DNA of 52,976 nucleotides from Bacilli bacterium (GCA_050874705.1 JBNMLE010000003.1:1-52976), one strand, 5' to 3'; positions 6,400 to 41,279 are shown, counted from the stretch's first letter. Numbers and translations are program-made. The notes: generated by a model from the letters alone, not told the origin.

Positions 6400-6730
6400 T
6401 CCGGTCTGGATAATTGCTAGCATTGCTAGAGGAAAGTCCATGCTCGCACCATCTGAGATGATGGTAGTGATTGCGCTAACGGAAAAAATAACGTTAGGTA
6501 TGCAGGAGTGCATAACGGCGGAACTAATCTAAAACATTGTCATGATGATGTTCCTGAAAGTGCCACAGAGACGAGCTTGATAGAAATATCAAGGTGGAAC
6601 GATGGTAAACCCCACAAGCGAGAAACCCAAATTTGGTAGGGGAGGTCGAACGGAAGAATTCAATTCCAATCGGCATGTGAAAACATAGATAAATTATTAT
6701 CCTAGACAAAACATGGCTTATAGGATCGGA
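6400..6730 (+). ncRNA. rnpB: RNase P RNA, type B
   Basis: GAGGAAAGTCCATGCTCGC, GTGCCACAG, GGTAAACCCC, GAAACCCAAATTTGGTAGGGGA, AAAACATGGCTTA; terminal helix TCCGGTCT/GGATCGGA. Confidence 0.96.
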
Positions 6731-18729: not shown

Positions 18730-21509
18730 AAATCGAAATTAAAAATCTTTTTAAATCATTTGGTCAACAAGAAATTTTTGATAATGTTTCTTTATCATTT
18801 CCTGAGAAAGGTGTTGTTATTATTTGTGGTGATAGTGGTTCAGGAAAATCAACTCTTTTAAATATTATTTCAGGACAAGATTTTGATTATAAAGGTGATG
18901 TGTTTATAGATAACAAAAACATAAAAACATTTTTACAAAACGAAATAGAAAATTTAAGAATTAATAAATTCGGATTTATTTATCAAAATTTTAATTTGTT
19001 AAATTTAGAATCTGTTAAAAGCAATATTATTTTACCTTTAGATTGTTCTTCCTATTTAAGCCAAGATATTAAAAATAGAAGAGTAGCATCAACTTTAGAA
19101 TATGTAAATCTTCCAAATTATGAAGAAAAAACTATTAACAAATTATCAGGTGGAGAAAAACAAAGAACCGCTATTGCAAGAGAAATAATTAAATCTCCAT
19201 CTATTCTTCTATGTGATGAACCAACAGGATCATTAGATAGTAAAAATTCTGAGCTCATTATCTCTTTGTTAAAGAAAATTTCTGATGAAATGCTAGTAAT
19301 TATAGTCACACACGATAAGACATTTTTTAAAGAAGCAAATATTATATATAAACTTTCAAATGCAAAAATTGAATGTATTAAAAACGAAAAGACATTTGCT
19401 ATAAAAGAGAAATTTAAATTAATTGGTGGACATTTTAAAAAAAGAAAGCCACATATTCCTTTAAAGTTTGTTTTTTCTCATAGCGTTAAAAAAATGAAAG
19501 AAAGAAAAGTACGATCATTTTTAACATATACAATGCTCTCTTTTAGCTTGACAGGTATAGGTATTTCTTTGTTATTAGGTCTAACATTAAAAGACAAAAT
19601 AAATAGTTCGATTTCTTCTATAATTGATCGCGATTTAATTGTAATGAAAAATAAGAATAATAATGTATCTTCTTTTTCTAATCCTTACAGCGCCCCAAAA
19701 GGAGAAGTTGATAAAATTTATGAGAATTACAAGGATTTTATTAAAAATGTTGGTGTTTCTTATCAAATAAATTTTGAAGATTTTTTCAAAGATAGAAATG
19801 AAATTTATATAAAAAACAAGACAGATAAATACATTATTAGTTCATTAAGTTCTCGTTCTATAAACGAATATAAATATTATGAAAAAAATGAGGATGAAAT
19901 ACTATATCCTTATTCTATTGATTTCTTAGAAAATGATGAAATTATTCTTGGTTTAAATTATGTTGATATGGCTAATATTTGTTTTACTTTAAAAATACAA
20001 AGAAGCTATTCCTCGCTTGGCGAATATATTAAAACAAATGATTTATTTGTTATTTTAGATGTTAAAAACAGTGAGTGGCAGTATGAAGATGAACAAATAT
20101 TTTCTGTTAAAGCAATTAAGGAAAATAATAATACATGTATTTTTCATAGTTCCACTAATTGGAATGAATTCGTATTTGAAGAAAAAATGCGTTTTCCATC
20201 GGATGACGATAATGAAAAAATTTATCCATGGGAAATGTATAAAATCTATTATTTAAATTCTTATGGCGATCCTAAATTATTTTTAGATAAAGCAATATAC
20301 GACTATTCATTAAAAGATTTTATCTTTGAAAGAGCAAATAACTTTAATTCGCCTTTATTATGCAAAATTGGTGAAGCTTGTGAAGTTAAACGAATATACG
20401 TTTATTATGTTGATAAAGAAATGATTGATATGAATGCTTTTGAAAAAGTTCTAACTACATGCCCAAATATAAAAAACTATTATTTAACATGTGGTTTCTC
20501 ATATCAAGTATTTGAAGAAAGCTTTTTAAGTGGTTTTAGAAACAATTTTTATTTATCTCCAAACAAAGAAGTGCTTGAAATGATTTCTGATTATGAAACA
20601 AAAAACGAAACCGATAAAATTGTAATGCCAGATAATGTTTCAAATGGAAATTTTCTTATTAATTTTAACGATGGCTTTAAGTTTTCTACAATAGTTAAAG
20701 AGATATTATTAGGAAGAGAAGCTAAAAACATTGATGAAGTTTTAATTTCAAAAAAATTAAATCAAAAACTGGGCGATGTTTATGGAAAAAATATTTATGC
20801 CTGTACTCTAAAAAATCAAATTCAAAAAAATGATGGTATTGAAAATGAATATGTCATAAAGAAATTGACGGTTGTAGGAGTGGTAGATGAGGAAAAAGAG
20901 TTTCTTTATCAAGATAATAATTGGCCGATTTCTTTTTTTAGAGATTCGTTAGGCGTTTCCTCTTTTAATTTGATTCCAAACCAGATTGTATTTGAATTTG
21001 AAAATAAAACTGAATCTGAACAAACATTAAGCAAACTTGAAAAAATGTTTTCTACTGTAAAATTCGTTAATCCAAATAATTCAATTACTAAAAGCATTGA
21101 TCAAACGATGAAATATACAAATGTGATACTTTTCTCTTTTGCGTTTGTTGCTTCATGTATTTCTTTTCTTTTGCTAGCGATGGTCGTTTTCTTAAATGTT
21201 ATTGAAAGTAAGAACGAGATAGATTGTTTTAAGTTAATTGGATTAAATGAAAAGAATATAAGAAAAATCTATATTTTCGAAACGCTTTTATATGGCTTAT
21301 ATGCGTTCTTTTTGTCTTCTCTAGAAGTTGTTTTTTTCGATATTGTTTTGTCTAAAGCTATTGGAAGTATTTTCAAAAGTTCAAATAGTTTATCAATAAA
21401 CTTATTCCCAATAGCTTTATTACTATTTTTTGCAATATCATTAACAACCATTGTTGCTTTTATAGTTTGCAAAACATTAATAAAAACAAAGAAGAAAATT
21501 AATCATTAA
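18726..21509 (+). CDS. ABC transporter ATPase-permease fusion (MacB/FtsX-like)
   Basis: GDSGSGKS, LSGGEKQR, LCDEPTGSLD, large extracellular region, C-terminal TMs. Confidence 0.85.
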   Translation: MKIEIKNLFKSFGQQEIFDNVSLSFPEKGVVIICGDSGSGKSTLLNIISGQDFDYKGDVFIDNKNIKTFLQNEIENLRINKFGFIYQNFNLLNLESVKSNIILPLDCSSYLSQDIKNRRVASTLEYVNLPNYEEKTINKLSGGEKQRTAIAREIIKSPSILLCDEPTGSLDSKNSELIISLLKKISDEMLVIIVTHDKTFFKEANIIYKLSNAKIECIKNEKTFAIKEKFKLIGGHFKKRKPHIPLKFVFSHSVKKMKERKVRSFLTYTMLSFSLTGIGISLLLGLTLKDKINSSISSIIDRDLIVMKNKNNNVSSFSNPYSAPKGEVDKIYENYKDFIKNVGVSYQINFEDFFKDRNEIYIKNKTDKYIISSLSSRSINEYKYYEKNEDEILYPYSIDFLENDEIILGLNYVDMANICFTLKIQRSYSSLGEYIKTNDLFVILDVKNSEWQYEDEQIFSVKAIKENNNTCIFHSSTNWNEFVFEEKMRFPSDDDNEKIYPWEMYKIYYLNSYGDPKLFLDKAIYDYSLKDFIFERANNFNSPLLCKIGEACEVKRIYVYYVDKEMIDMNAFEKVLTTCPNIKNYYLTCGFSYQVFEESFLSGFRNNFYLSPNKEVLEMISDYETKNETDKIVMPDNVSNGNFLINFNDGFKFSTIVKEILLGREAKNIDEVLISKKLNQKLGDVYGKNIYACTLKNQIQKNDGIENEYVIKKLTVVGVVDEEKEFLYQDNNWPISFFRDSLGVSSFNLIPNQIVFEFENKTESEQTLSKLEKMFSTVKFVNPNNSITKSIDQTMKYTNVILFSFAFVASCISFLLLAMVVFLNVIESKNEIDCFKLIGLNEKNIRKIYIFETLLYGLYAFFLSSLEVVFFDIVLSKAIGSIFKSSNSLSINLFPIALLLFFAISLTTIVAFIVCKTLIKTKKKINH

Positions 21510-22362
21510 TTGATTCATGCACTCCATCATAAAAGAATTGAACTCCAAGTACAGATGGCCCAGCATGGTATGAATTTGTCGGCGAAGCAGGAGAAAAATA
21601 TACTTTTTTAAATCCTTTGTTAAGTAAATACTCTTTAACCTCTTTTATGGTTTCTTCGTCGCATGTTGAAATATTAATATAGGCCGCAGATAAATCCAAA
21701 TTTTTATATGAATTTAATCTATCTTCGACATATTTTTTAATGCATTTTTGTGAATTTCCACGATATATTTTTCCTATAGTGAAAGCTCCTTCTTTATTTG
21801 TTTCAATTACAGGTCGAAGTTTTAAAAGTTTCGTCGCATAAAATTTTAATGCTGTGCATCTTCCACCTTTATATAGATAATCAAGATCTTTAATTATAAA
21901 TGAAGTTGAAAGATAAGGAATTCTTTCTTCACATTTTTGGCATATCTCTTCAAAACTATAACCTTCCTTATTTAGTTTTATTGCATATAAAACAAGAAGA
22001 GCAGTAGCTCCGCTTGTGCCTCTCGAATCTATTATTCTTATATGTGGATTATTGTTTGATGCAGCAATTGCGTTGCTATAACATCCAGAAAGTTTTGATG
22101 ACATTGTAAAATGTATTAGATAATCATTTTCTTTTAATTGTTTTTCAAAAAAGTTTTGATATTCACCAATATTTGGTGCGGCTGTATGGCACATTATTTT
22201 TGTTTTATTTGTAAACTCAAACAATTCTTGAGTTGAAAATGTATCATCTCTATATGTTTTACCTTCTTTTTCAGTACTAAAATGAATAATAGGGATGTTA
22301 TATTCTTCAATTAATTCTTTTGTTAAGTCCGCTGTGCTTGTTGCGCTAATTAAAATTTTCAT
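21499..22362 (-). CDS. DegV family fatty-acid-binding protein
   Basis: STADL, TAAP, MSSKLSG, IDS, YLYKGGR, HAGP. Confidence 0.9.
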   Translation of the reverse strand: MKILISATSTADLTKELIEEYNIPIIHFSTEKEGKTYRDDTFSTQELFEFTNKTKIMCHTAAPNIGEYQNFFEKQLKENDYLIHFTMSSKLSGCYSNAIAASNNNPHIRIIDSRGTSGATALLVLYAIKLNKEGYSFEEICQKCEERIPYLSTSFIIKDLDYLYKGGRCTALKFYATKLLKLRPVIETNKEGAFTIGKIYRGNSQKCIKKYVEDRLNSYKNLDLSAAYINISTCDEETIKEVKEYLLNKGFKKVYFSPASPTNSYHAGPSVLGVQFFYDGVHESIND

Positions 22363-24833: not shown

Positions 24834-24848
24834 GTCATAAGCCATTTA

Positions 24849-24878
24849 AAGAGCCTACTTTGTTAGGCTTTTTATTTT
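24849..24878 (+). terminator. Terminator after cold shock gene
   Basis: GAGCCTA-loop-TAGGCTT plus T-rich tail. Confidence 0.7.
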
Positions 24879-24916: not shown

Positions 24917-25594
24917 ATGAATAGTATGGAAAAGGTAAGAACTATTTTACTTTCAAGAAGCATGTATGATGATAACGATAAAGAAGCAGACATGCTAAGA
25001 GAATATTTAAAGAAAAGCAAGACATTGCTAATTAATGTTATGTCTTCTCCTGGCGCAGGGAAAACAACAACCCTTATTGCTTTGATTAATAAATTATCCA
25101 CTAACTATCGTGTTGGAGTTATGGAAGCGGATATTGATAGCGATGTAGACGCTAATAAAATCGCGAAATCAACAAACGCTAAGTCAATTCAACTTCATAC
25201 TGGTGGCATGTGCCATCTAGATGCTGGAATGACTAGAAGAGGACTAGATGAATTAAATATTGATGATTTAGATATTGTCTTTTTAGAAAATGTTGGAAAT
25301 TTGGTTTGCCCTGCTGAATTTGATACTGGTTCACTAATGAATATGATGATTTTATCTATTCCAGAAGGCGATGATAAACCTCTTAAATATCCTTTAATAT
25401 TTGAAAAATCAGATCTTGTAGTTATTAACAAAATTGATACATTGCCATTTTTTGATTTTTCATTAGAAAAATGCAAAGAATATATATATTCTCGCAATAA
25501 AAGTGCTACAATAATTTCAATCTCTGCTAAAAATGGAGAAGGAATAGATGATTTGGCTAATTATATAACCAAAAAACTCAAGGAGATAATATAA
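24917..25594 (+). CDS. hypB: Nickel-insertion GTPase HypB (copy 1)
   Basis: SSPGAGKTT, TGGMCHLDA, ENVGNLVCPAEFD, EGDDKPLKYP, NKID; start could be 24926. Confidence 0.93.
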   Translation: MNSMEKVRTILLSRSMYDDNDKEADMLREYLKKSKTLLINVMSSPGAGKTTTLIALINKLSTNYRVGVMEADIDSDVDANKIAKSTNAKSIQLHTGGMCHLDAGMTRRGLDELNIDDLDIVFLENVGNLVCPAEFDTGSLMNMMILSIPEGDDKPLKYPLIFEKSDLVVINKIDTLPFFDFSLEKCKEYIYSRNKSATIISISAKNGEGIDDLANYITKKLKEII

Positions 25595-25604
25595 GGAGAA
25601 CTTT

Positions 25605-28466
25605 ATGCCAGAGCAAAATAAGAAAATTATTTCTAAGTATCAAGGAGAAAAAGACCTAGACAAAGCATATGCTGAGTTAGGAAAAAAGATTACTGATGTC
25701 GTTCCTCACAAACTAAAAGGCGTCACTTCAAATGATCCAGAATACTGGGGTTTAAAAGAAGTCTTAACACCTGAAATGGTTGCGTTAGGAAACAAGATGA
25801 AACTTCGCAAATATTATACTTTTGAAGAATTAATGGAAATGAACAAAGACATGGAACCATGCGATCTTCAAAAATTGCTTGATGAGATGTCAATTATCGG
25901 CATTATCGAATATGATTATGGTGACAATTACGATCATAATGGAGAATTGAAAGACAAACCTAGAATTAAACGTTATCGTTTACCTTATTTTGTTCCAGGT
26001 AGTGCTGAATTATTTAATTCAACTGTTGATAGAATTGAAAAAAATCCTGCTGTTGCTTCTTTCTTTGAAAGAATGACTTTTATTCCACTTGCAGGTGTTA
26101 CTCAAATGCTTCCACCTGGTGGAGATGGTGTTGGAATGCATGTTATTCCAGTTGAAAAAGCTATTAATTCCAAATCCGAGTCAGTTGATTTAGAGCACAT
26201 TTCTTATTGGCTTAAAAAATACGAAGGTCATATTTCCGCAGGTATATGCTCTTGCCGTGCAAGTAGAGCTTTCTTAGGTGATGGCTGTTCTGATGATAAC
26301 CAAGATTGGTGTATTCAACTTGGTGATATGGCTGATTATACTGTCGAAACAGGTCGTGCGCATTATATTACAAAAGAACGCGCTCTTGAAATTCTTGAAA
26401 TTTCTGAAAAGAACGGATATGTGCACCAAATCACTAACATTGATGGTGAAAACAAGATTTTTGATATTTGTAACTGCAATGTCAAGATTTGTAACGCTTT
26501 AAGAACTTCTTTATTGTTCAATACTCCATATTTATCAAGGAGTTCATTCACTGCAAAAGTTGATCCAAAAAATTGTGTTGCTTGTGGTAAATGTGTTGAA
26601 TCCTGCCCAGCTGGTGCTGTTAAATTAGGACAAAAGATGTGCCATAAAAATGGTAAACCAGTCACTTATCCACATGCCCCATTACCAGATAACAATATTT
26701 GGGGTCCATATGCTTGGGATGAAGAATATCGTGATACTGCTCGTATGTCTAATACATATGAAAGTGGAAGTGCACCATGTAAAGCTGCATGTCCAGCACA
26801 TGTCCCTGTCCAAGCTTATTTAAAACTTGCTCATGATGGCAAATATAAAGAAGCACTTGCAATGATTAAAACAGAAAACCCATTCCCAGCGGTATGTGGT
26901 CGTATTTGTAATAAACGTTGTGAAGACGCTTGTACTCGTGGAGATATAGATGCACCTGTATCAATTGATGCAGTTAAGAAATATGTTGCTGACTTAGATT
27001 TAAATGCAAAAGATCGCTATATTCCTGAAAAATTAATACAATCAGCAGTTCTTGATCATTTCGATGAAAAGATTGCTATTATCGGGGCTGGTCCAGCAGG
27101 TTTAAGTGCTGCATATTATTTAGCATTAATGGGTTATAAACCAACAGTATTTGAAAAGAATCAAAGACCTGGTGGTATGTTAATGTATGGTATTCCAACA
27201 TATAAACTTGAAAAAGATGTTATCGATGCTGAAATAGAAGTTATTAAACAACTAGGTGTTGAAATTAAATGTGGTGTAAATGTTGGTGAAGATATTTCAA
27301 TCGACGAACTCAAAAAACAAGGATACAAAGCCTTCTATATCGCAATTGGATGCCAAGGTGGTAGACGTCCAGGTATTAAAAACGATGATGCAATCGGAAC
27401 TGAAATTGCTGTTGAATATTTGCATAATTCATTCGAAAAACGTGAACAATTTAATGGCGATGTCGTTGTTATCGGTGGTGGTAATGTCGCTATCGACTGC
27501 GCTCGTAATGCTCACCGTTTAGGCGCTAAATCCGTTTCAATGTTCTCTCTTGAAGATCGTGATTCAATGCCTGCAAGCAAAGAAGAAATCAAAGAAACAC
27601 TTGAAGAAAATGTTTCTATTAATAACTCTTGGGGCCCAAAAGAAGTTATCGTTGATGAAAACAATCATGTAACTGCTATTGTTCTTAAAAAATGCTTAAG
27701 AACTATTGATCCTGAAACAAAGAAATTCTCACCTTTATATGATGAAAATGAAACAATGACTGTAGCTGCAGACAAAATTGTGTTCGCTATTGGTCAAACT
27801 ATCAATTGGGGTAAATTGCTTGAAAACACTAAAGTTACATTCTGGCATGGTAATTATCCAATTGCTGATAAACTTACATATCAAACTGCTGATGAAGATA
27901 TATTTGTTGGTGGTGATGTATTTACTGGACCACGCTTTGTTATCGACGCTATTGCAGCGGGTCACGAAGCTGCTGAAAGCTTGCATCGTCATGTAAGACC
28001 TCTTGCTTCATTAACAATTGGTAGAGATCGTCGTCGTTTTGTCACTCTTGATAAGAAAGATCTTCAATATCCTTCTTACGATACAATGGGTAGACAAGAA
28101 GCTGGCATGGATGAATCAATCGATTACAAGAATTCTTTCAAAGACGCTCATAAAGACTTAACCGAAGAACAAGTCCATATCGAAACAGGACGTTGCCTCT
28201 CTTGTGGTGTATCATATGTCGATCCTAATAAATGTATTGGATGCGGTATTTGTACAACTAGATGTAAATTTGACGCAATTCATCTTGTGAGAGATCGCCC
28301 AGATTGCACAAAAATGGTTGCAGGTGAAGAAAAAATTAAATACATGCTTCCATATGTAATCAAACGTGGATTCAAGATTCTCGGTCACTCTGGCAGTAAA
28401 GAAGCTAGAGAACTTGCTAAAAAACGTCGTGCATATAAAAAAGCACAAAAGGCTAATAAAAAATAA
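25605..28466 (+). CDS. Large FAD/NAD(P)-dependent Fe-S oxidoreductase (GltD-like core, ferredoxin motifs, Cys-rich N-terminal domain)
   Basis: CVACGKCVESCP; PCKAACP...CGRICNKRCEDAC; GAGPAG; GGGNVAIDCA; GGD; RCLSC; CIGCGICTTRC. Confidence 0.88.
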   Translation: MPEQNKKIISKYQGEKDLDKAYAELGKKITDVVPHKLKGVTSNDPEYWGLKEVLTPEMVALGNKMKLRKYYTFEELMEMNKDMEPCDLQKLLDEMSIIGIIEYDYGDNYDHNGELKDKPRIKRYRLPYFVPGSAELFNSTVDRIEKNPAVASFFERMTFIPLAGVTQMLPPGGDGVGMHVIPVEKAINSKSESVDLEHISYWLKKYEGHISAGICSCRASRAFLGDGCSDDNQDWCIQLGDMADYTVETGRAHYITKERALEILEISEKNGYVHQITNIDGENKIFDICNCNVKICNALRTSLLFNTPYLSRSSFTAKVDPKNCVACGKCVESCPAGAVKLGQKMCHKNGKPVTYPHAPLPDNNIWGPYAWDEEYRDTARMSNTYESGSAPCKAACPAHVPVQAYLKLAHDGKYKEALAMIKTENPFPAVCGRICNKRCEDACTRGDIDAPVSIDAVKKYVADLDLNAKDRYIPEKLIQSAVLDHFDEKIAIIGAGPAGLSAAYYLALMGYKPTVFEKNQRPGGMLMYGIPTYKLEKDVIDAEIEVIKQLGVEIKCGVNVGEDISIDELKKQGYKAFYIAIGCQGGRRPGIKNDDAIGTEIAVEYLHNSFEKREQFNGDVVVIGGGNVAIDCARNAHRLGAKSVSMFSLEDRDSMPASKEEIKETLEENVSINNSWGPKEVIVDENNHVTAIVLKKCLRTIDPETKKFSPLYDENETMTVAADKIVFAIGQTINWGKLLENTKVTFWHGNYPIADKLTYQTADEDIFVGGDVFTGPRFVIDAIAAGHEAAESLHRHVRPLASLTIGRDRRRFVTLDKKDLQYPSYDTMGRQEAGMDESIDYKNSFKDAHKDLTEEQVHIETGRCLSCGVSYVDPNKCIGCGICTTRCKFDAIHLVRDRPDCTKMVAGEEKIKYMLPYVIKRGFKILGHSGSKEARELAKKRRAYKKAQKANKK

Positions 28467-28468
28467 TT

Positions 28469-28813
28469 ATGCATGAATTAGGCATAGTTGTTCATGTCAT
28501 TGATCAAATCGAAAAAATTGCTGAAGAAAATAAAGTAAACAAAGTTGTAAAACTTACTTTAGAAATAGGTGAAGTTTCAACAATTGTTCCTTCTTATTTC
28601 AGAGATTGCTTTGAGTGGTCAAAGAAGAAAACAAAATACATGAAAGATTGCCAACTAGAATTAATTATTATTGAAGGCAAATCTTATTGTAAAAATTGTA
28701 AAAAAACTTATAAAACAACTGAATATGCAAAAGAATGTCCTTATTGCCATAGTTTAGATACATATTTAATTACTGGCAATGAAGCAAATATAAAAGATAT
28801 TCAAGTAATCTAA
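28469..28813 (+). CDS. hypA: Nickel metallochaperone HypA
   Basis: N-terminal MHE, IGEVS, CKNC...CPYC zinc site. Confidence 0.93.
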   Translation: MHELGIVVHVIDQIEKIAEENKVNKVVKLTLEIGEVSTIVPSYFRDCFEWSKKKTKYMKDCQLELIIIEGKSYCKNCKKTYKTTEYAKECPYCHSLDTYLITGNEANIKDIQVI

Positions 28814-28838
28814 AAAGAGAGCAAGTGCTCTCTTTTTT
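28812..28838 (+). terminator. Terminator of hypB-oxidoreductase-hypA operon
   Basis: AAAAAGAGAGCA-AG-TGCTCTCTTTTT. Confidence 0.8.
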
Positions 28839-28853
28839 CAATTATTTTGCAAT

Positions 28854-28879
28854 AAAAAAGCAAGAGTTAATCTTGCTTT
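28854..28879 (-). terminator. Terminator of isomerase gene
   Basis: AAAGCAAGA-GTTAA-TCTTGCTTT with A run on the left (U tail on the minus strand). Confidence 0.75.
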
Positions 28880-28895
28880 ATTAATAATTAAATGA

Positions 28896-30269
28896 TTAGA
28901 AGAATCTACCGATTAAATCACGGCTATATTCGACTGTTTCTTCCATATCGCCGAATGCCATAACTTCACCAGCATAGAAGGTGTTGTTTTCACCTTGCAT
29001 ACCTTCAACCTTATCATACCATCCATCAGCGTAATCTTTTGAAGAAACGTGTGGGAAGTAATACCAGTCATCGATACGTTCAACTTTTTCAACTGGACGT
29101 TTGCAGATTTCCATATCTTTTAATGTTGTTTCTTTAGCAACTTCGAATGGAACATCTTCCATACCTTCGTGATTGCGGAGTGTGAATGTAACGAGTGGTT
29201 GATCTAAATCTTCTGGCCAACGATGATAGAAAACCATTAAGTGTCCTCTTGTTTCGTTTGTCATATTTTCGAAGAAGTAGTATGAGATATCAGGTGTATT
29301 TCCTTCAGCAGTGCGAACCGCCATTGTGAAATATTCTTTATGAACAATTTTTGAGAATAATTCTTTTTCTTTTTCGTTTGGATCACCATATTTGAGGAAT
29401 AATTCAAGTGGTGTACAAATAATTAATTTATCGAATACTTCAACTTTTCCATTTACTGTGATGTAAACTTTGCCGTCTTTTCTTTCAACTTTTGTAACTT
29501 CGCTATTTAATAATGCTGGATGTTTAAGATGGCTATTAACACCTTCCCAAATGGATTGAGTACCATTTTTCCATGTCCAGAGCTTACCTGTTGAAAGGAA
29601 TTGCTTTACTGTAAATGCATCCAAATATTTTAAAACATAAGCTGCAGGAATTTCATCGAAATAACCATAACCAAATGATGTGAATGGTCCTTTCCAAACT
29701 GTTGTAGCGGCTTCACATTTGTTAAGTTTAAGGAATTCACTAAATGGCATGCACAAATCCTTAAGATTTGGGTTTTCGCCTTCAATATGTGCAAGTTTCA
29801 TTTTTGGTGATGGGCAAAGACCTTCATATCTTCCTTGTGCAACGCCTCTATGACCATTGACGTCATATCCTTTATATTTGGTGTCAAGAAGTCTTGATAA
29901 TTTGTTAAGTTTCATAAGCATATTTAACTTAACATGTAGTGGACGTTTTACTTCTTTTCCATCAACAGTCATAAATTTACGACCCATCTTAGGACCATCT
30001 AAGTGTGATGCGCCACCGAATTCTTCACATTCACGGACTGCGAAATAAGTATCACAACCCATAACAGCGCCCATTTCAATAGTCTTATCAACCCATTCGC
30101 CATTTGCTGTTTTTACTTTCATTAATGGTGAAAATGCTTTGCCACCAACGCGGTTTGATTTTTCGTAGATGACATAATTGTTGTATCCTTTTTTCTCAAG
30201 ATACATAGCTGCTGACGTTCCGGCTGGACCGCCACCAATGATGCAGATTCTTTGATTTAAATCCTTCAT
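28896..30269 (-). CDS. FAD-dependent polyunsaturated fatty-acid (linoleate) isomerase homologue, PAI-like
   Basis: GGGPAG FAD motif; EMGAVMG, PFTSFGYGYFDEIPAAYVLKYLD, HLMVFYHRW, WYYFPHVSSKDYADGWYDKVEGMQG closely match C. acnes PAI as recalled. Confidence 0.82.
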   Translation of the reverse strand: MKDLNQRICIIGGGPAGTSAAMYLEKKGYNNYVIYEKSNRVGGKAFSPLMKVKTANGEWVDKTIEMGAVMGCDTYFAVRECEEFGGASHLDGPKMGRKFMTVDGKEVKRPLHVKLNMLMKLNKLSRLLDTKYKGYDVNGHRGVAQGRYEGLCPSPKMKLAHIEGENPNLKDLCMPFSEFLKLNKCEAATTVWKGPFTSFGYGYFDEIPAAYVLKYLDAFTVKQFLSTGKLWTWKNGTQSIWEGVNSHLKHPALLNSEVTKVERKDGKVYITVNGKVEVFDKLIICTPLELFLKYGDPNEKEKELFSKIVHKEYFTMAVRTAEGNTPDISYYFFENMTNETRGHLMVFYHRWPEDLDQPLVTFTLRNHEGMEDVPFEVAKETTLKDMEICKRPVEKVERIDDWYYFPHVSSKDYADGWYDKVEGMQGENNTFYAGEVMAFGDMEETVEYSRDLIGRFF

Positions 30270-30390
30270 TTTAATTTTTTCTCCATAAAGAAGTTGTGCT
30301 TCTTGTTAGCATTAGTTTATTACTAAAAAATTAAGGTGGCGAAAAAATTTTTCAAAATATACATATAATCGGTATTTTTTTATTGAATTA

Positions 30391-31062
30391 TTATTTTTCA
30401 ATATATTCTTTAATTTGATTTTCTAAATAAGTAGTCAATTCATCGATGCCTTCACCATTTTTAGCAGAAGTGACAAAAAGTGGGATATTTTTGTTACGAA
30501 TTCTAATATTAGATTTTGCTCGTTCAATATCAAAATCAAATAGGTCTTTAACATCAGCTTTTGTAATAGCAATTAAATCAGCTACTTCAAACATAAGAGG
30601 ATATTTTAAAGGCTTATCGTCGCCTTCGTTTGTAGAAAGAAGAACGAGATTTTTTGTAGCACCAGTATCAAATTCAGCAGGGCAGACTAAATTGCCAATG
30701 TTTTCAAGAATGACAACATCTAAATCGTCAACTCCAAGAGCGATAAGAGCTTCTCGAGACATTTGGCAAGTTATATGACACGCCCCCATAGTGTGCATTT
30801 GAATTGTTTTGACACCTAGACTATTTATCGTTTTAGCGTCTACATCGCTATCAATATCTGCTTCAATAACTCCAATTCTATATTTACTTTTCAATTTATT
30901 GATTAAAGAAGTAAGAAGGGTTGTTTTCCCGCTTCCTGGTGAAGACATAACATTTAAATAAAACACATGTTTGTTTTTTAAATTTTCTCGTATATCTTTT
31001 GCTTCTTTGTTATTTCTTGAGATTATATCTTCTTTGATTTCTACAATTTTAATATCGTTCAT
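30391..31062 (-). CDS. hypB: Nickel-insertion GTPase HypB (copy 2)
   Basis: SSPGSGKTT, TMGACHIT, ENIGNLVCPAEFD, EGDDKPLKYP, TKAD. Confidence 0.92.
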   Translation of the reverse strand: MNDIKIVEIKEDIISRNNKEAKDIRENLKNKHVFYLNVMSSPGSGKTTLLTSLINKLKSKYRIGVIEADIDSDVDAKTINSLGVKTIQMHTMGACHITCQMSREALIALGVDDLDVVILENIGNLVCPAEFDTGATKNLVLLSTNEGDDKPLKYPLMFEVADLIAITKADVKDLFDFDIERAKSNIRIRNKNIPLFVTSAKNGEGIDELTTYLENQIKEYIEK

Positions 31063-40587: not shown

Positions 40588-40661
40588 CGGCTGGGGCGAC
40601 TGGGTTCGAAACAGTGCTCATGGGTTCAGAGCCCACTGCCTTACCACTTGGCTACGCCCCA
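40588..40661 (-). tRNA. tRNA-Gln(CTG), degenerate (possible pseudogene)
   Basis: Cloverleaf TGGGGCG/CGCCCCA, anticodon loop CTCTGAA; T53:C61 mismatch; ends GCCG rather than CCA. Confidence 0.8.
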
Positions 40662-40687
40662 AAATAAAAGGCGGCGTTATTGGTAAA

Positions 40688-40776
40688 TGGTGCCCGGGAC
40701 AGGACTTGAACCGGTATGGGATTTGATTCCCGAGGGATTTTAAGTCCCTTGCGTCTACCAATTTCGCCACCTGGGC
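40688..40776 (-). tRNA. tRNA-Leu(TAA)
   Basis: Long variable arm, loop CTTAAAA, ACCA end; two stem mismatches. Confidence 0.92.
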
Positions 40777-40784
40777 ATTTAAGA

Positions 40785-40861
40785 TGGTCTCCCGTAGACG
40801 ATTTGAACGTCCGACCCCTTGATTAAAAGTCGAGTGCTCTAGCCAGCTGAGCTAACGGGAG
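40785..40861 (-). tRNA. tRNA-Lys(TTT)
   Basis: Acceptor CTCCCGT/ACGGGAG, loop CTTTTAA, ACCA end. Confidence 0.92.
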
Positions 40862-40982
40862 ATCTTACAATTCAATTTGAATTGCTTTGATATTATTACA
40901 CATTGTAAATGCATTTGCTACTATTTTTTTAAAAAATATTAAAATATTGTATTATCATCATAAATTCATTATTTATTTTAAT

Positions 40983-41005
40983 AAAAATAAAACGCCCGAA
41001 GGCGT
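40983..41005 (-). terminator. Terminator of tRNA Val-Tyr-Gln operon
   Basis: ACGCC-TTCG-GGCGT-TTTATTTTT on the minus strand. Confidence 0.75.
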
Positions 41006-41018
41006 AAATATTTCGAGT

Positions 41019-41094
41019 TGGTTGGGGTGGCTGGGATCGAACCAGCGAAGTGACAGAGTCAAAGTCTGTTGCCTTACCGCTTGGCTACACCCCA
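41019..41094 (-). tRNA. tRNA-Gln(TTG)
   Basis: TGGGGTG/CACCCCA, loop CTTTGAC, CCA end. Confidence 0.96.
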
Positions 41095-41098
41095 AGAG

Positions 41099-41182
41099 TG
41101 GTGGAGAAAGGTGGATTTGAACCACCGAACCCGAAGGAACTGATTTACAGTCAGCCGCGTTTGGCCACTTCGCTATTTCTCC
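41099..41182 (-). tRNA. tRNA-Tyr(GTA)
   Basis: Loop CTGTAAA, long variable arm, CCA end. Confidence 0.97.
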
Positions 41183-41203
41183 AAGACTTAGCACACATAT
41201 TAA

Positions 41204-41279
41204 TGGTGGATGTTAAGAGGCTCGAACTCCTGACCCCCGCCGTGTAAAGGCGATGCTCTCCCAACTGAGCTAAACATCC
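41204..41279 (-). tRNA. tRNA-Val(TAC)
   Basis: GGATGTT/AACATCC, loop TTTACAC, CCA end. Confidence 0.97.

Follow-up and report, generated by a model that had tools for sequence, protein, structure and literature searches.

HypA and HypB deliver nickel to [NiFe]-hydrogenases and to the urease of Helicobacter pylori, and to our knowledge the nickel enzymes described so far fall into only about ten kinds. The polyunsaturated fatty-acid isomerase of Propionibacterium acnes (PAI) converts linoleate into trans-10,cis-12 conjugated linoleic acid (t10,c12-CLA). Homologues of these proteins surround the gene of a 953-aa Fe-S flavoprotein, P0001, in a 52,976-nt stretch of DNA from a Bacilli bacterium (GCA_050874705.1, JBNMLE010000003.1:1-52976), which in its full length is called the window here. 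The closest described system is that of the 901-aa oxidoreductase IsrA (VUZ27132.1) from Acetobacterium wieringae ISORED-2, named as a putative isoprene reductase by Kronen et al. (2023; PMC10134865). As described in the main text of that study, the isrA gene set comprises hypA in two copies, a single hypB and a ferredoxin gene, and IsrA is induced while isoprene is reduced. Its 'clade 9' homologues span Firmicutes, Spirochaetes, Tenericutes and other phyla, and a neighbourhood network of 988 IsrA homologues gave a co-occurrence of 0.73 for HypA and 0.56 for HypB. Kronen et al. proposed IsrA as a nickel client, with nickel at a six-cysteine (Cys6) site whose CxC motifs (C180/C182 and C254/C256) were likened to the A-cluster of acetyl-CoA synthase (ACS); the same text points out that ordinary Fe-S clusters, too, can be bound by CxC motifs. 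IsrA homologues were further suggested to hydrogenate unfunctionalised conjugated double bonds, and an oleate hydratase gene adjoins that of the IsrA homologue in two Acetobacterium species. The experimental link of the family reported there is to isoprene only, via proteogenomics.

The window is contig C3 of a draft genome of 1.13 Mb (~30% GC, 97% complete, 86 contigs). On its plus strand, hypB1 (24917-25594), encoding a 225-aa G3E GTPase nickel chaperone (P0122) recognised by TIGR00073 and by alignment to 2hf8, is followed after 10 nt by the P0001 gene (25605-28466) and, after a further 2 nt, by hypA (28469-28813), encoding a 114-aa nickel metallochaperone (P0124) recognised by PF01155 and its conserved motifs. 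Converging on this unit from the minus strand are hypB2 (30391-31062; P0123, 223 aa, TIGR00073), a second HypB paralogue, and, 121 nt downstream of it in the same direction, the gene of a 457-aa homologue of PAI-type FAD-dependent polyunsaturated fatty-acid isomerases (28896-30269; P0002, matched to 2b9w_A). An 82-nt spacer separates the two units; it holds terminator-like hairpins on either strand (28812-28837, plus, 11 pairs; 28879-28857, minus, 9 pairs), which end both of them. The open reading frames lie exactly where a preliminary description of this DNA, made from the sequence alone, had placed them when it called hypB, the 953-aa gene and hypA a tight operon converging on hypB2 and a PAI-like gene.

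Judged by its domains, homologues and gene context, P0001 is an IsrA-family Fe-S flavoprotein that we propose to be a diene reductase and the client of HypA and HypB. The locus may form a two-unit module hydrogenating polyunsaturated fatty acids (PUFAs), in which the PAI homologue would make a conjugated diene and a nickel-matured, NAD(P)H-driven enzyme of the IsrA type would reduce it. Taken as a whole, this proposal could equally well prove right or wrong; its parts differ in strength and are weighed below.

An IsrA-type Fe-S flavoprotein

Every Pfam match in P0001 begins at residue 313 or later, and a search of residues 1-320 returned nothing at E≤10, PF03598 included. The matches are to Fer4 (PF00037; residues 317-338 and 871-892), Fer4_20 (PF14691; 76 bits) and Pyr_redox_2 (PF07992; 93 bits). 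Residues ~370-870 make up a module of the NfnB/GltD type, consisting of Fer4_20 with two [4Fe-4S] clusters, an FAD/NAD(P) domain and then a ferredoxin motif. The Fer4_20 and FAD/NAD(P) part (residues ~388-800) is encoded at 26766-28004 and the C-terminal ferredoxin-type 4Fe-4S motif (residues ~860-900) at 28182-28304, both on the plus strand. The relatives of this module in the Protein Data Bank (PDB) are 9bov_A, 8oh5_C, 9n5u_A and 5jca_L, with E values from 2e-85 to 1e-62. NfnB, GltD and dihydropyrimidine dehydrogenase (5jca_L, 9n5u_A, 9bov_A) share with P0001 the two [4Fe-4S] clusters, the FAD and the NAD(P)H site, but lack a counterpart of its 385-aa N-terminal domain (N-domain); only the domain module is common to them. 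None of the NCBIfam models for the glutamate synthase small subunit or NfnB reached its cut-off on P0001 (PRK12771, 444.6 against 516; TIGR01316, 269 against 471.75).

The N-domain carries a Cys/His site made up of C215, C217, R218, C236, H274, C289, C291 and C296, its two CxC motifs being separated by 74 residues. An alignment of 34 diverse sequences and a set of full-length homologues (85 of 85) show all of these residues to be invariant, and we propose that their codons (26247-26492, plus strand) mark a Ni/Fe-S catalytic site. Homologues from loci lacking hypA were tested for loss of the site within the full-length set and keep it as well. A single CxxCxxCxxxC motif follows the site. An AlphaFold model of the N-domain, built from the 34-sequence alignment, had a pLDDT of 76 and a pTM of 0.80.

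By every feature compared, P0001 belongs to the IsrA 'clade 9' family, the features compared being those of the published description. Both proteins have an N-domain of ~270-310 aa without a recognised domain, with six cysteines and two CxC motifs 74 residues apart, followed in the same order by a ferredoxin motif, Fer4_20, an FAD/NAD(P) domain and a C-terminal ferredoxin motif. They also share the hypA/hypB neighbourhood and the proposed reduction of an unfunctionalised conjugated diene with nickel at Cys6. The differences are in length (953 aa against 901 aa) and in gene content, the present locus having one hypA and not two, two hypB genes, no separate 350-aa ferredoxin gene and, as a partner absent from the main text of the paper, a PAI-type fatty-acid isomerase. 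Acetobacterium, moreover, possesses carbon monoxide dehydrogenase (CODH)/ACS and Lar, whereas the 1.13-Mb gut host examined here gave no match to the nickel enzymes searched for. The client assignment is therefore much cleaner here than in Acetobacterium, as this minimal genome lacks a match to the HypA/HypB clients for which it was searched.

The preliminary description had presented the locus as a candidate new system, with the flavoprotein sandwiched between the hyp genes as an unrecognised enzyme of nickel or another metal. It was right in substance, but its core was not new: the IsrA family, its HypA/HypB neighbourhood and the nickel-enzyme proposal were already in print, and since Kronen et al. 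propose IsrA as a nickel client linked to HypA and HypB, the central idea of that description is a published hypothesis.

Linkage of the putative reductase gene with hypA and hypB

A scan of species-representative genomes yielded 80 loci with reductase homologues 53-97% identical; their record titles refer to Lachnospiraceae, Oscillospiraceae, Erysipelotrichaceae/Coprobacillaceae, Anaeroplasmataceae and Treponema as well as to other groups. The hypA gene lies directly 3' of the reductase gene in 62 of the 73 loci whose downstream sequence reaches 500 nt or more, covering at least two phyla. Among the 61 loci with room on both sides, hypA was found in 53, hypB in 35 and neither in 7; two hypB copies are present in 13 of the 80 loci. 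Of 10 genomes in which the reductase locus has no hypA, 9 encode HypA at another place.

The window's own class was sampled evenly with 301 genomes, of which 300 were scored for HypD (G190 being unscored) and 300 for PAI. HypA exceeded its cut-off in 32 genomes and a full-length reductase was found in 31, all of them among those 32; by coordinates, hypA flanks the reductase gene in every one of the 31 carriers. The lone HypA genome without a reductase (G221) encodes HypD 3 kb from hypA, in a classical hyp operon, and HypD exceeded its cut-off in only four of the 300 genomes. The first scan also supplied a set of 40 carriers, mostly clostridial, of which 34 have neither a [NiFe] large subunit nor HypD, the same six having both, and 23 of the 40 additionally lack any gene of the Prismane/CODH family. 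In these lineages, HypA thus goes with either HypD or the reductase, which is the signature of a dedicated client.

The idea of the preliminary description that the flavoprotein is the client of HypA and HypB is strongly supported by this conserved co-location. On the genomic evidence, we consider it very probable that the reductase is their functional partner.

The scans also returned variants of the family. Lachnospiraceae-type loci (15-17 of the 80, e.g. L018:7845-13066) carry five extra genes after hypA, encoding a CooC/MinD-like ATPase (AAA_31), two proteins of the 2-hydroxyglutaryl-CoA dehydratase D-component family (HGD-D), a BcrAD/BadFG activator ATPase and a protein of 233 aa that weakly matches CdhC (ACS beta; 32 bits). 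This set could be a second nickel-related, ATP-driven low-potential reductase system tied to the IsrA-type family. Stand-alone relatives of the Cys-rich part of the N-domain, open reading frames of 253-440 aa matching residues ~170-347 only (E 1e-11 to 1e-17; e.g. G200:C1:1755840-1756310 and G085:C1:1588499-1588936), occur in ten class genomes without a full-length reductase and in the carriers G085, G114 and G263, the last including a 69-aa fragment at a contig end that falls outside this size range. They are unlinked to hypA and are comparable to the isr-operon ferredoxin in the description of Kronen et al. Some genomes hold two reductase paralogues, in tandem in locus L017 (3815-10922) or, in G340, with the second copy away from hypA (G340:C1:1235339-1236409). 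Near-identical reductase genes were found in bins labelled Evtepia and Desulfovibrio piger (L058/L060), and a Faecalibacillus/Erysipelotrichaceae-like copy in a bin labelled Bacteroidaceae (L061); these odd labels look like binning contamination or recent transfer.

A homologue of the PAI isomerase linked to the putative reductase

P0002 matches P. acnes PAI over its full length (2b9w_A; E 2.5e-119, residues 5-457 aligned to chain residues 6-423). It shares with PAI the N-terminal FAD dinucleotide-binding motif, has Pfam matches to NAD_binding_8/Amino_oxidase and differs by an insertion of ~28 aa (residues 142-169) and by the position of its gene beside a reductase gene and hypB, an arrangement that we do not know from P. 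acnes. The function of P0002 is putative.

PAI homologues (E≤1e-20) were found in eight of the 300 class genomes. All eight are among the 31 reductase carriers and belong to four families, while none of the 269 non-carriers has one. In a sample of the order, three of 61 genomes have a PAI homologue; one of them (G368) holds two reductase copies, neither adjoining PAI. Clustering of PAI with the reductase occurs in at least five gene orders. In the host genome (G000), PAI lies in the same cluster and is convergent; in G207, all four genes share a strand in the order PAI-hypB-hypA-reductase, separated by 3-nt gaps apart from one overlap; and G129 has the order PAI-like gene (28% identical)-hypB-reductase-hypA. 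A metagenome scan with the PAI query gave 80 loci at 80-99% identity, 76 of them with at least 600 nt downstream, and in 75 of these 76 the reductase begins within 800 nt downstream of PAI. The commonest form is PAI-reductase-hypA with a 16-nt gap between PAI and the reductase, and its lineage is Acutalibacteraceae-like; one locus reads hypB-PAI-hypB-reductase.

Metagenomic genomes of ~52% and ~40% GC carry the module with identities to the window proteins of 82% for PAI, 79% for the reductase and 75% for HypA. Such identities of 75-82% between genomes of ~30% and ~52% GC suggest that PAI, the reductase and HypA move together, transferred as a unit. In a FastTree phylogeny of 85 reductases, the PAI-adjacent ones nearest to the window form an exclusive seven-member clade with an SH-like support of 100; the G207 reductase falls in its sister group and that of G129 on a deep branch, although the long branches are unsure.

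The link between PAI and the reductase appears to be new. The string 'linole' occurs nowhere in the main text of PMC10134865, whose supplementary tables S8 and S12 may list amine-oxidase/PAI neighbours. Among the papers searched, none joined linoleic acid, an isomerase and hypB, and the hypA mention found in literature on biohydrogenation and CLA reductase concerns a hypABCDEF cluster only.

Several of the same results count against the proposal or limit its reach. In five of the eight PAI-bearing class genomes, PAI is apart from the reductase, and the metagenome loci stem from few lineages and are not independent. PAI is also missing in 23 of the 31 class-sample carriers, and 38 of the 40 carriers of the mostly clostridial set lack it, so a conjugated fatty acid cannot be the general substrate. 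Faecalibacillus, Lachnospira eligens and Pseudobutyrivibrio are among the carriers that have the reductase but no PAI. The PAI linkage lends real comparative support to the isomerise-then-reduce pathway of the preliminary description, but PAI is no general partner of the family.

The strongest alternative, which we hold to be unlikely, keeps the enzyme family and its Hyp dependence but gives it a substrate other than a fatty acid, such as isoprene, a terpenoid or another dietary diene, PAI being unrelated or acting on that substrate. It draws on the isoprene link, the only experimental one in the text of PMC10134865, on the majority of carriers that have no PAI and on the roughly 16 Lachnospiraceae-type loci with their CooC-like ATPase, two HGD-D proteins, BcrAD activator and CdhC-like protein. 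It does not account well for the confinement of PAI to carrier genomes (eight of eight), for an adjacency kept through at least five gene orders, for the full-length match of P0002 to a fatty-acid isomerase or for the oleate hydratase beside the homologue of two Acetobacterium species (PMC10134865). Fatty acids are favoured for the PAI-linked clade because of that last neighbourhood, of the PAI linkage and of the chemical parallel between conjugated linoleic acid (CLA) and isoprene. For this clade, we judge a conjugated fatty acid to have an even chance of being the substrate.

In a few of the metagenome contigs (L156, L157, L164 and four similar loci), the reductase downstream of PAI is split into at least two open reading frames, reflecting frameshifts or assembly errors.

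Proposed mechanism and the metal of the reductase

We suggest that the PAI homologue would conjugate the methylene-interrupted diene of a free fatty acid, linoleate or a related PUFA. As the diene formed in this way would be remote from the carboxylate and no more activated than isoprene, hydride transfer from a flavin, as in enoate reductases, should fail on it. P0001 would instead take up electrons from NAD(P)H at its FAD and relay them to the N-terminal Cys6/His site along a chain of [4Fe-4S] clusters, of which Fer4_20 holds two and the two ferredoxin motifs one apiece. At this site, where six cysteines, including those of both CxC motifs, and a histidine are invariant, the unactivated conjugated diene would be reduced to a monoene. 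HypA and the two HypB GTPases would be dedicated maturation factors loading nickel into the Cys6/His site, with HypB acting in a GTP-dependent manner. We infer nickel as the metal and Cys6/His as its place, as well as the electron path and a conjugated fatty acid as the substrate.

The chaperones look functional. Both HypB proteins, which are 53% identical to each other, exceed the TIGR00073 equivalog cut-off of 121 bits (hypB1, 223 bits; hypB2, 225 bits). Alignment to Methanocaldococcus jannaschii HypB (2hf8; E 1.4e-40 for hypB1) shows that both retain the P-loop and the CH...C metal motif. HypA scores 103.6 bits against PF01155, whose cut-off is 28.9, and has two CxxC zinc motifs and an N-terminal M-H-E nickel-site motif; M1-H2-E3 and the zinc cysteines C74, C77, C90 and C93 are invariant in 23 IsrA-linked HypA sequences. 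It is on these invariant HypA residues, and on the motifs present in HypB, that their functionality is argued. The M-H-E N-terminus is the known nickel site of HypA, as stated in PMC10134865. The genome encodes one HypA and two HypB proteins.

HypA and HypB thus resemble their counterparts serving hydrogenases and H. pylori urease in passing Pfam or TIGRFAM thresholds and in retaining, for HypA, the nickel (MHE) and zinc motifs and, for HypB, the GTPase and CH...C motifs. They differ in that the putative client is an Fe-S flavoprotein, in the TIGR00100 score of HypA and in a genome without a match to HypD or to a hydrogenase large subunit. A structure prediction of the N-domain in complex with HypA scored 0.00, which we counted for neither side.

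The A-cluster of ACS is a Ni-Ni-[4Fe-4S] centre with a Cys-Gly-Cys motif. In the N-domain of P0001, four cysteines with a Cys-X-Cys some 50-70 residues further on resemble the ligand pattern of that cluster, which is an analogy only, with no sequence or fold similarity detected. An ACS-like fold for the N-domain was considered and is unsupported, as neither the Foldseek search nor the search with Pfam PF03598 gave such a match.

Against nickel and its place at this site stand the following points. A Foldseek search of the N-domain model against the PDB at E≤1e-3 gave no fold match, only tandem winged-helix pieces, and hence no resemblance to ACS, CODH or any solved nickel enzyme fold, nor did it point to another assignment. 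HypA reached only 76.4 bits against TIGR00100, under the equivalog cut-off of 88.1, and so belongs to a divergent subfamily that could handle another metal. Nickel importers of the CbiM/NikM and NiCoT types were looked for in the genome without success, a search that did not extend to ABC systems of the NikABCDE type; this absence counts mildly against nickel use. The function of IsrA is itself putative, and no member of the family has been purified. We regard nickel as probably the metal of the IsrA-type reductase.

If it is not, the HypA and HypB paralogues might insert another metal or help to build an unusual Fe-S cluster at Cys6/His, leaving the reductase a pure Fe-S flavoenzyme. The low TIGR00100 score, the missing importers and the capacity of CxC motifs to ligate ordinary Fe-S clusters (PMC10134865) all fit this possibility, but the invariant M-H-E of HypA and the retained CH...C of HypB do not, and we hold it to be rather improbable.

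A slightly less probable alternative assigns the chemistry to the other flavoprotein: P0002 would be the C=C reductase and P0001 only its low-potential donor, with electrons running from NAD(P)H through the Fe-S chain to the FAD of P0002. The 16-nt gap between the two genes in their commonest arrangement and the Nfn/GltD-type electron-input module of P0001 would suit such a pair, as would the size of the purified Butyrivibrio CLA reductase, which is about that of P0002. It leaves the Hyp genes and the invariant Cys6/His site unexplained, however; most family members occur without any PAI, and the enzyme to which P0002 is closely related over its full length is a redox-neutral isomerase.

Known nickel enzymes in the host genome

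The preliminary description had found no hydrogenase large subunit, hypCDEF, urease, CODH or lar gene in the window. For the hydrogenase large subunit, urease, CODH and lar, this holds, and a search of the whole 1.13-Mb genome was equally empty for the [NiFe] large subunit (PF00374), HypD (PF01924), urease alpha, CdhC/ACS, LarC and LarA. The search did not treat HypC, HypE and HypF separately and did not include glyoxalase I and other minor nickel enzymes; for urease, it covered the host genome only.

CODH was considered as a client of HypA and HypB and rejected. The sole match to the Prismane family is a 43-bit, cysteine-poor fragment on the 1.2-kb contig C79 (L002:3-1214, minus strand), where a 404-aa open frame fills the contig and the match covers profile positions 165-354. 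As it has almost no cysteines, this frame is not a credible CODH or hybrid cluster protein (HCP). The contig may be a chimera or hold a degenerate domain; by eye, the C-terminal part looks like another protein.

That hypA and hypB have a different nickel enzyme as their client, or are genes in decay that lie beside the flavoprotein by chance, is very improbable: a gene could be missing from a draft in 86 contigs that is 97% complete, and minor nickel enzymes such as glyoxalase I lay outside the search, but this small genome retains three intact hyp genes, no known client searched for gave a match, and the adjacency holds in 62 of 73 loci and at least two phyla, with co-occurrence in 31 of 32 HypA genomes of the class sample.

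Relation to fatty-acid biohydrogenation

Known CLA-reducing systems include the CLA reductase of Butyrivibrio fibrisolvens (Hughes 1982; Fukuda 2007) and the CLA-HY/DH/DC/ER pathway of Lactobacillus plantarum. They share with the module proposed here the overall chemistry of an isomerase followed by a conjugated-diene reductase; they are set apart by their descriptions, in which neither nickel dependence nor Hyp linkage appears. That a different CLA reductase was purified and sequenced from B. fibrisolvens (Fukuda 2007, as related in papers citing it) tells against the proposal.

The trans-10 route matters for milk-fat depression and for the levels of bioactive CLA and trans fatty acids in the gut, and we know of no enzymes described for its ruminal form. 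The bacteria forming ruminal trans-10 intermediates are likewise still called unclear in the abstract of PMC7339423.

A broader reading of our data is possible, although we rate it less likely than not. The IsrA type would be a new class of Ni-Fe-S enzymes, matured by HypA/HypB without HypCDEF and hydrogenating unactivated conjugated dienes. Its PAI-linked clade, abundant in metagenomes of the human and animal gut, would supply the missing reductase of a trans-10-type route from linoleate through t10,c12-CLA to 18:1, and the PAI-reductase-hypA module would move as a unit between distant gut lineages. If true, the list of nickel enzymes would gain a kind with unusual chemistry, a Ni-Fe-S reductase matured by Hyp proteins and acting on unactivated C=C bonds, the case for Ni-Fe-S diene reductases having so far come from one proteogenomic study of isoprene. 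The PAI partner names a concrete and purchasable class of substrates, the conjugated linoleic acids, and makes the locus a testable candidate for a missing step of gut fatty-acid hydrogenation.

Other features of the window

A further terminator-like hairpin (24847-24874, plus strand), with 11 pairs followed by a run of T, lies 250 nt past the end of the preceding gene and ~40 nt before the start of hypB1. It could be the terminator of the preceding gene or a leader or attenuator of hypB1. The flanking genes, which encode a tRNA synthetase, YchF, IspF, ABC exporters, a DegV/FakB-like protein and a lipoprotein, bear no relation to the cluster. The gene of the DegV/FakB1-like fatty-acid-binding protein (21499-22362, minus strand; TIGR00762, 190 bits) lies 2.5 kb upstream of hypB1, a proximity seen only in this species (L007, L095); the protein could supply or bind the free fatty-acid substrate.

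In a lookup of sequencing runs, DNA matching the locus came from gut and manure metagenomes of five studies, two of them possibly its source, and none of the runs listed was an RNA dataset carrying it. An Rfam scan of the window found RNase P and tRNAs only, with no metal riboswitch near the operon. The RNase P RNA is of class B (6402-6725; 260 bits) and six tRNA genes are clustered at 40591-41279, both consistent with a low-GC lineage of the Bacillota.

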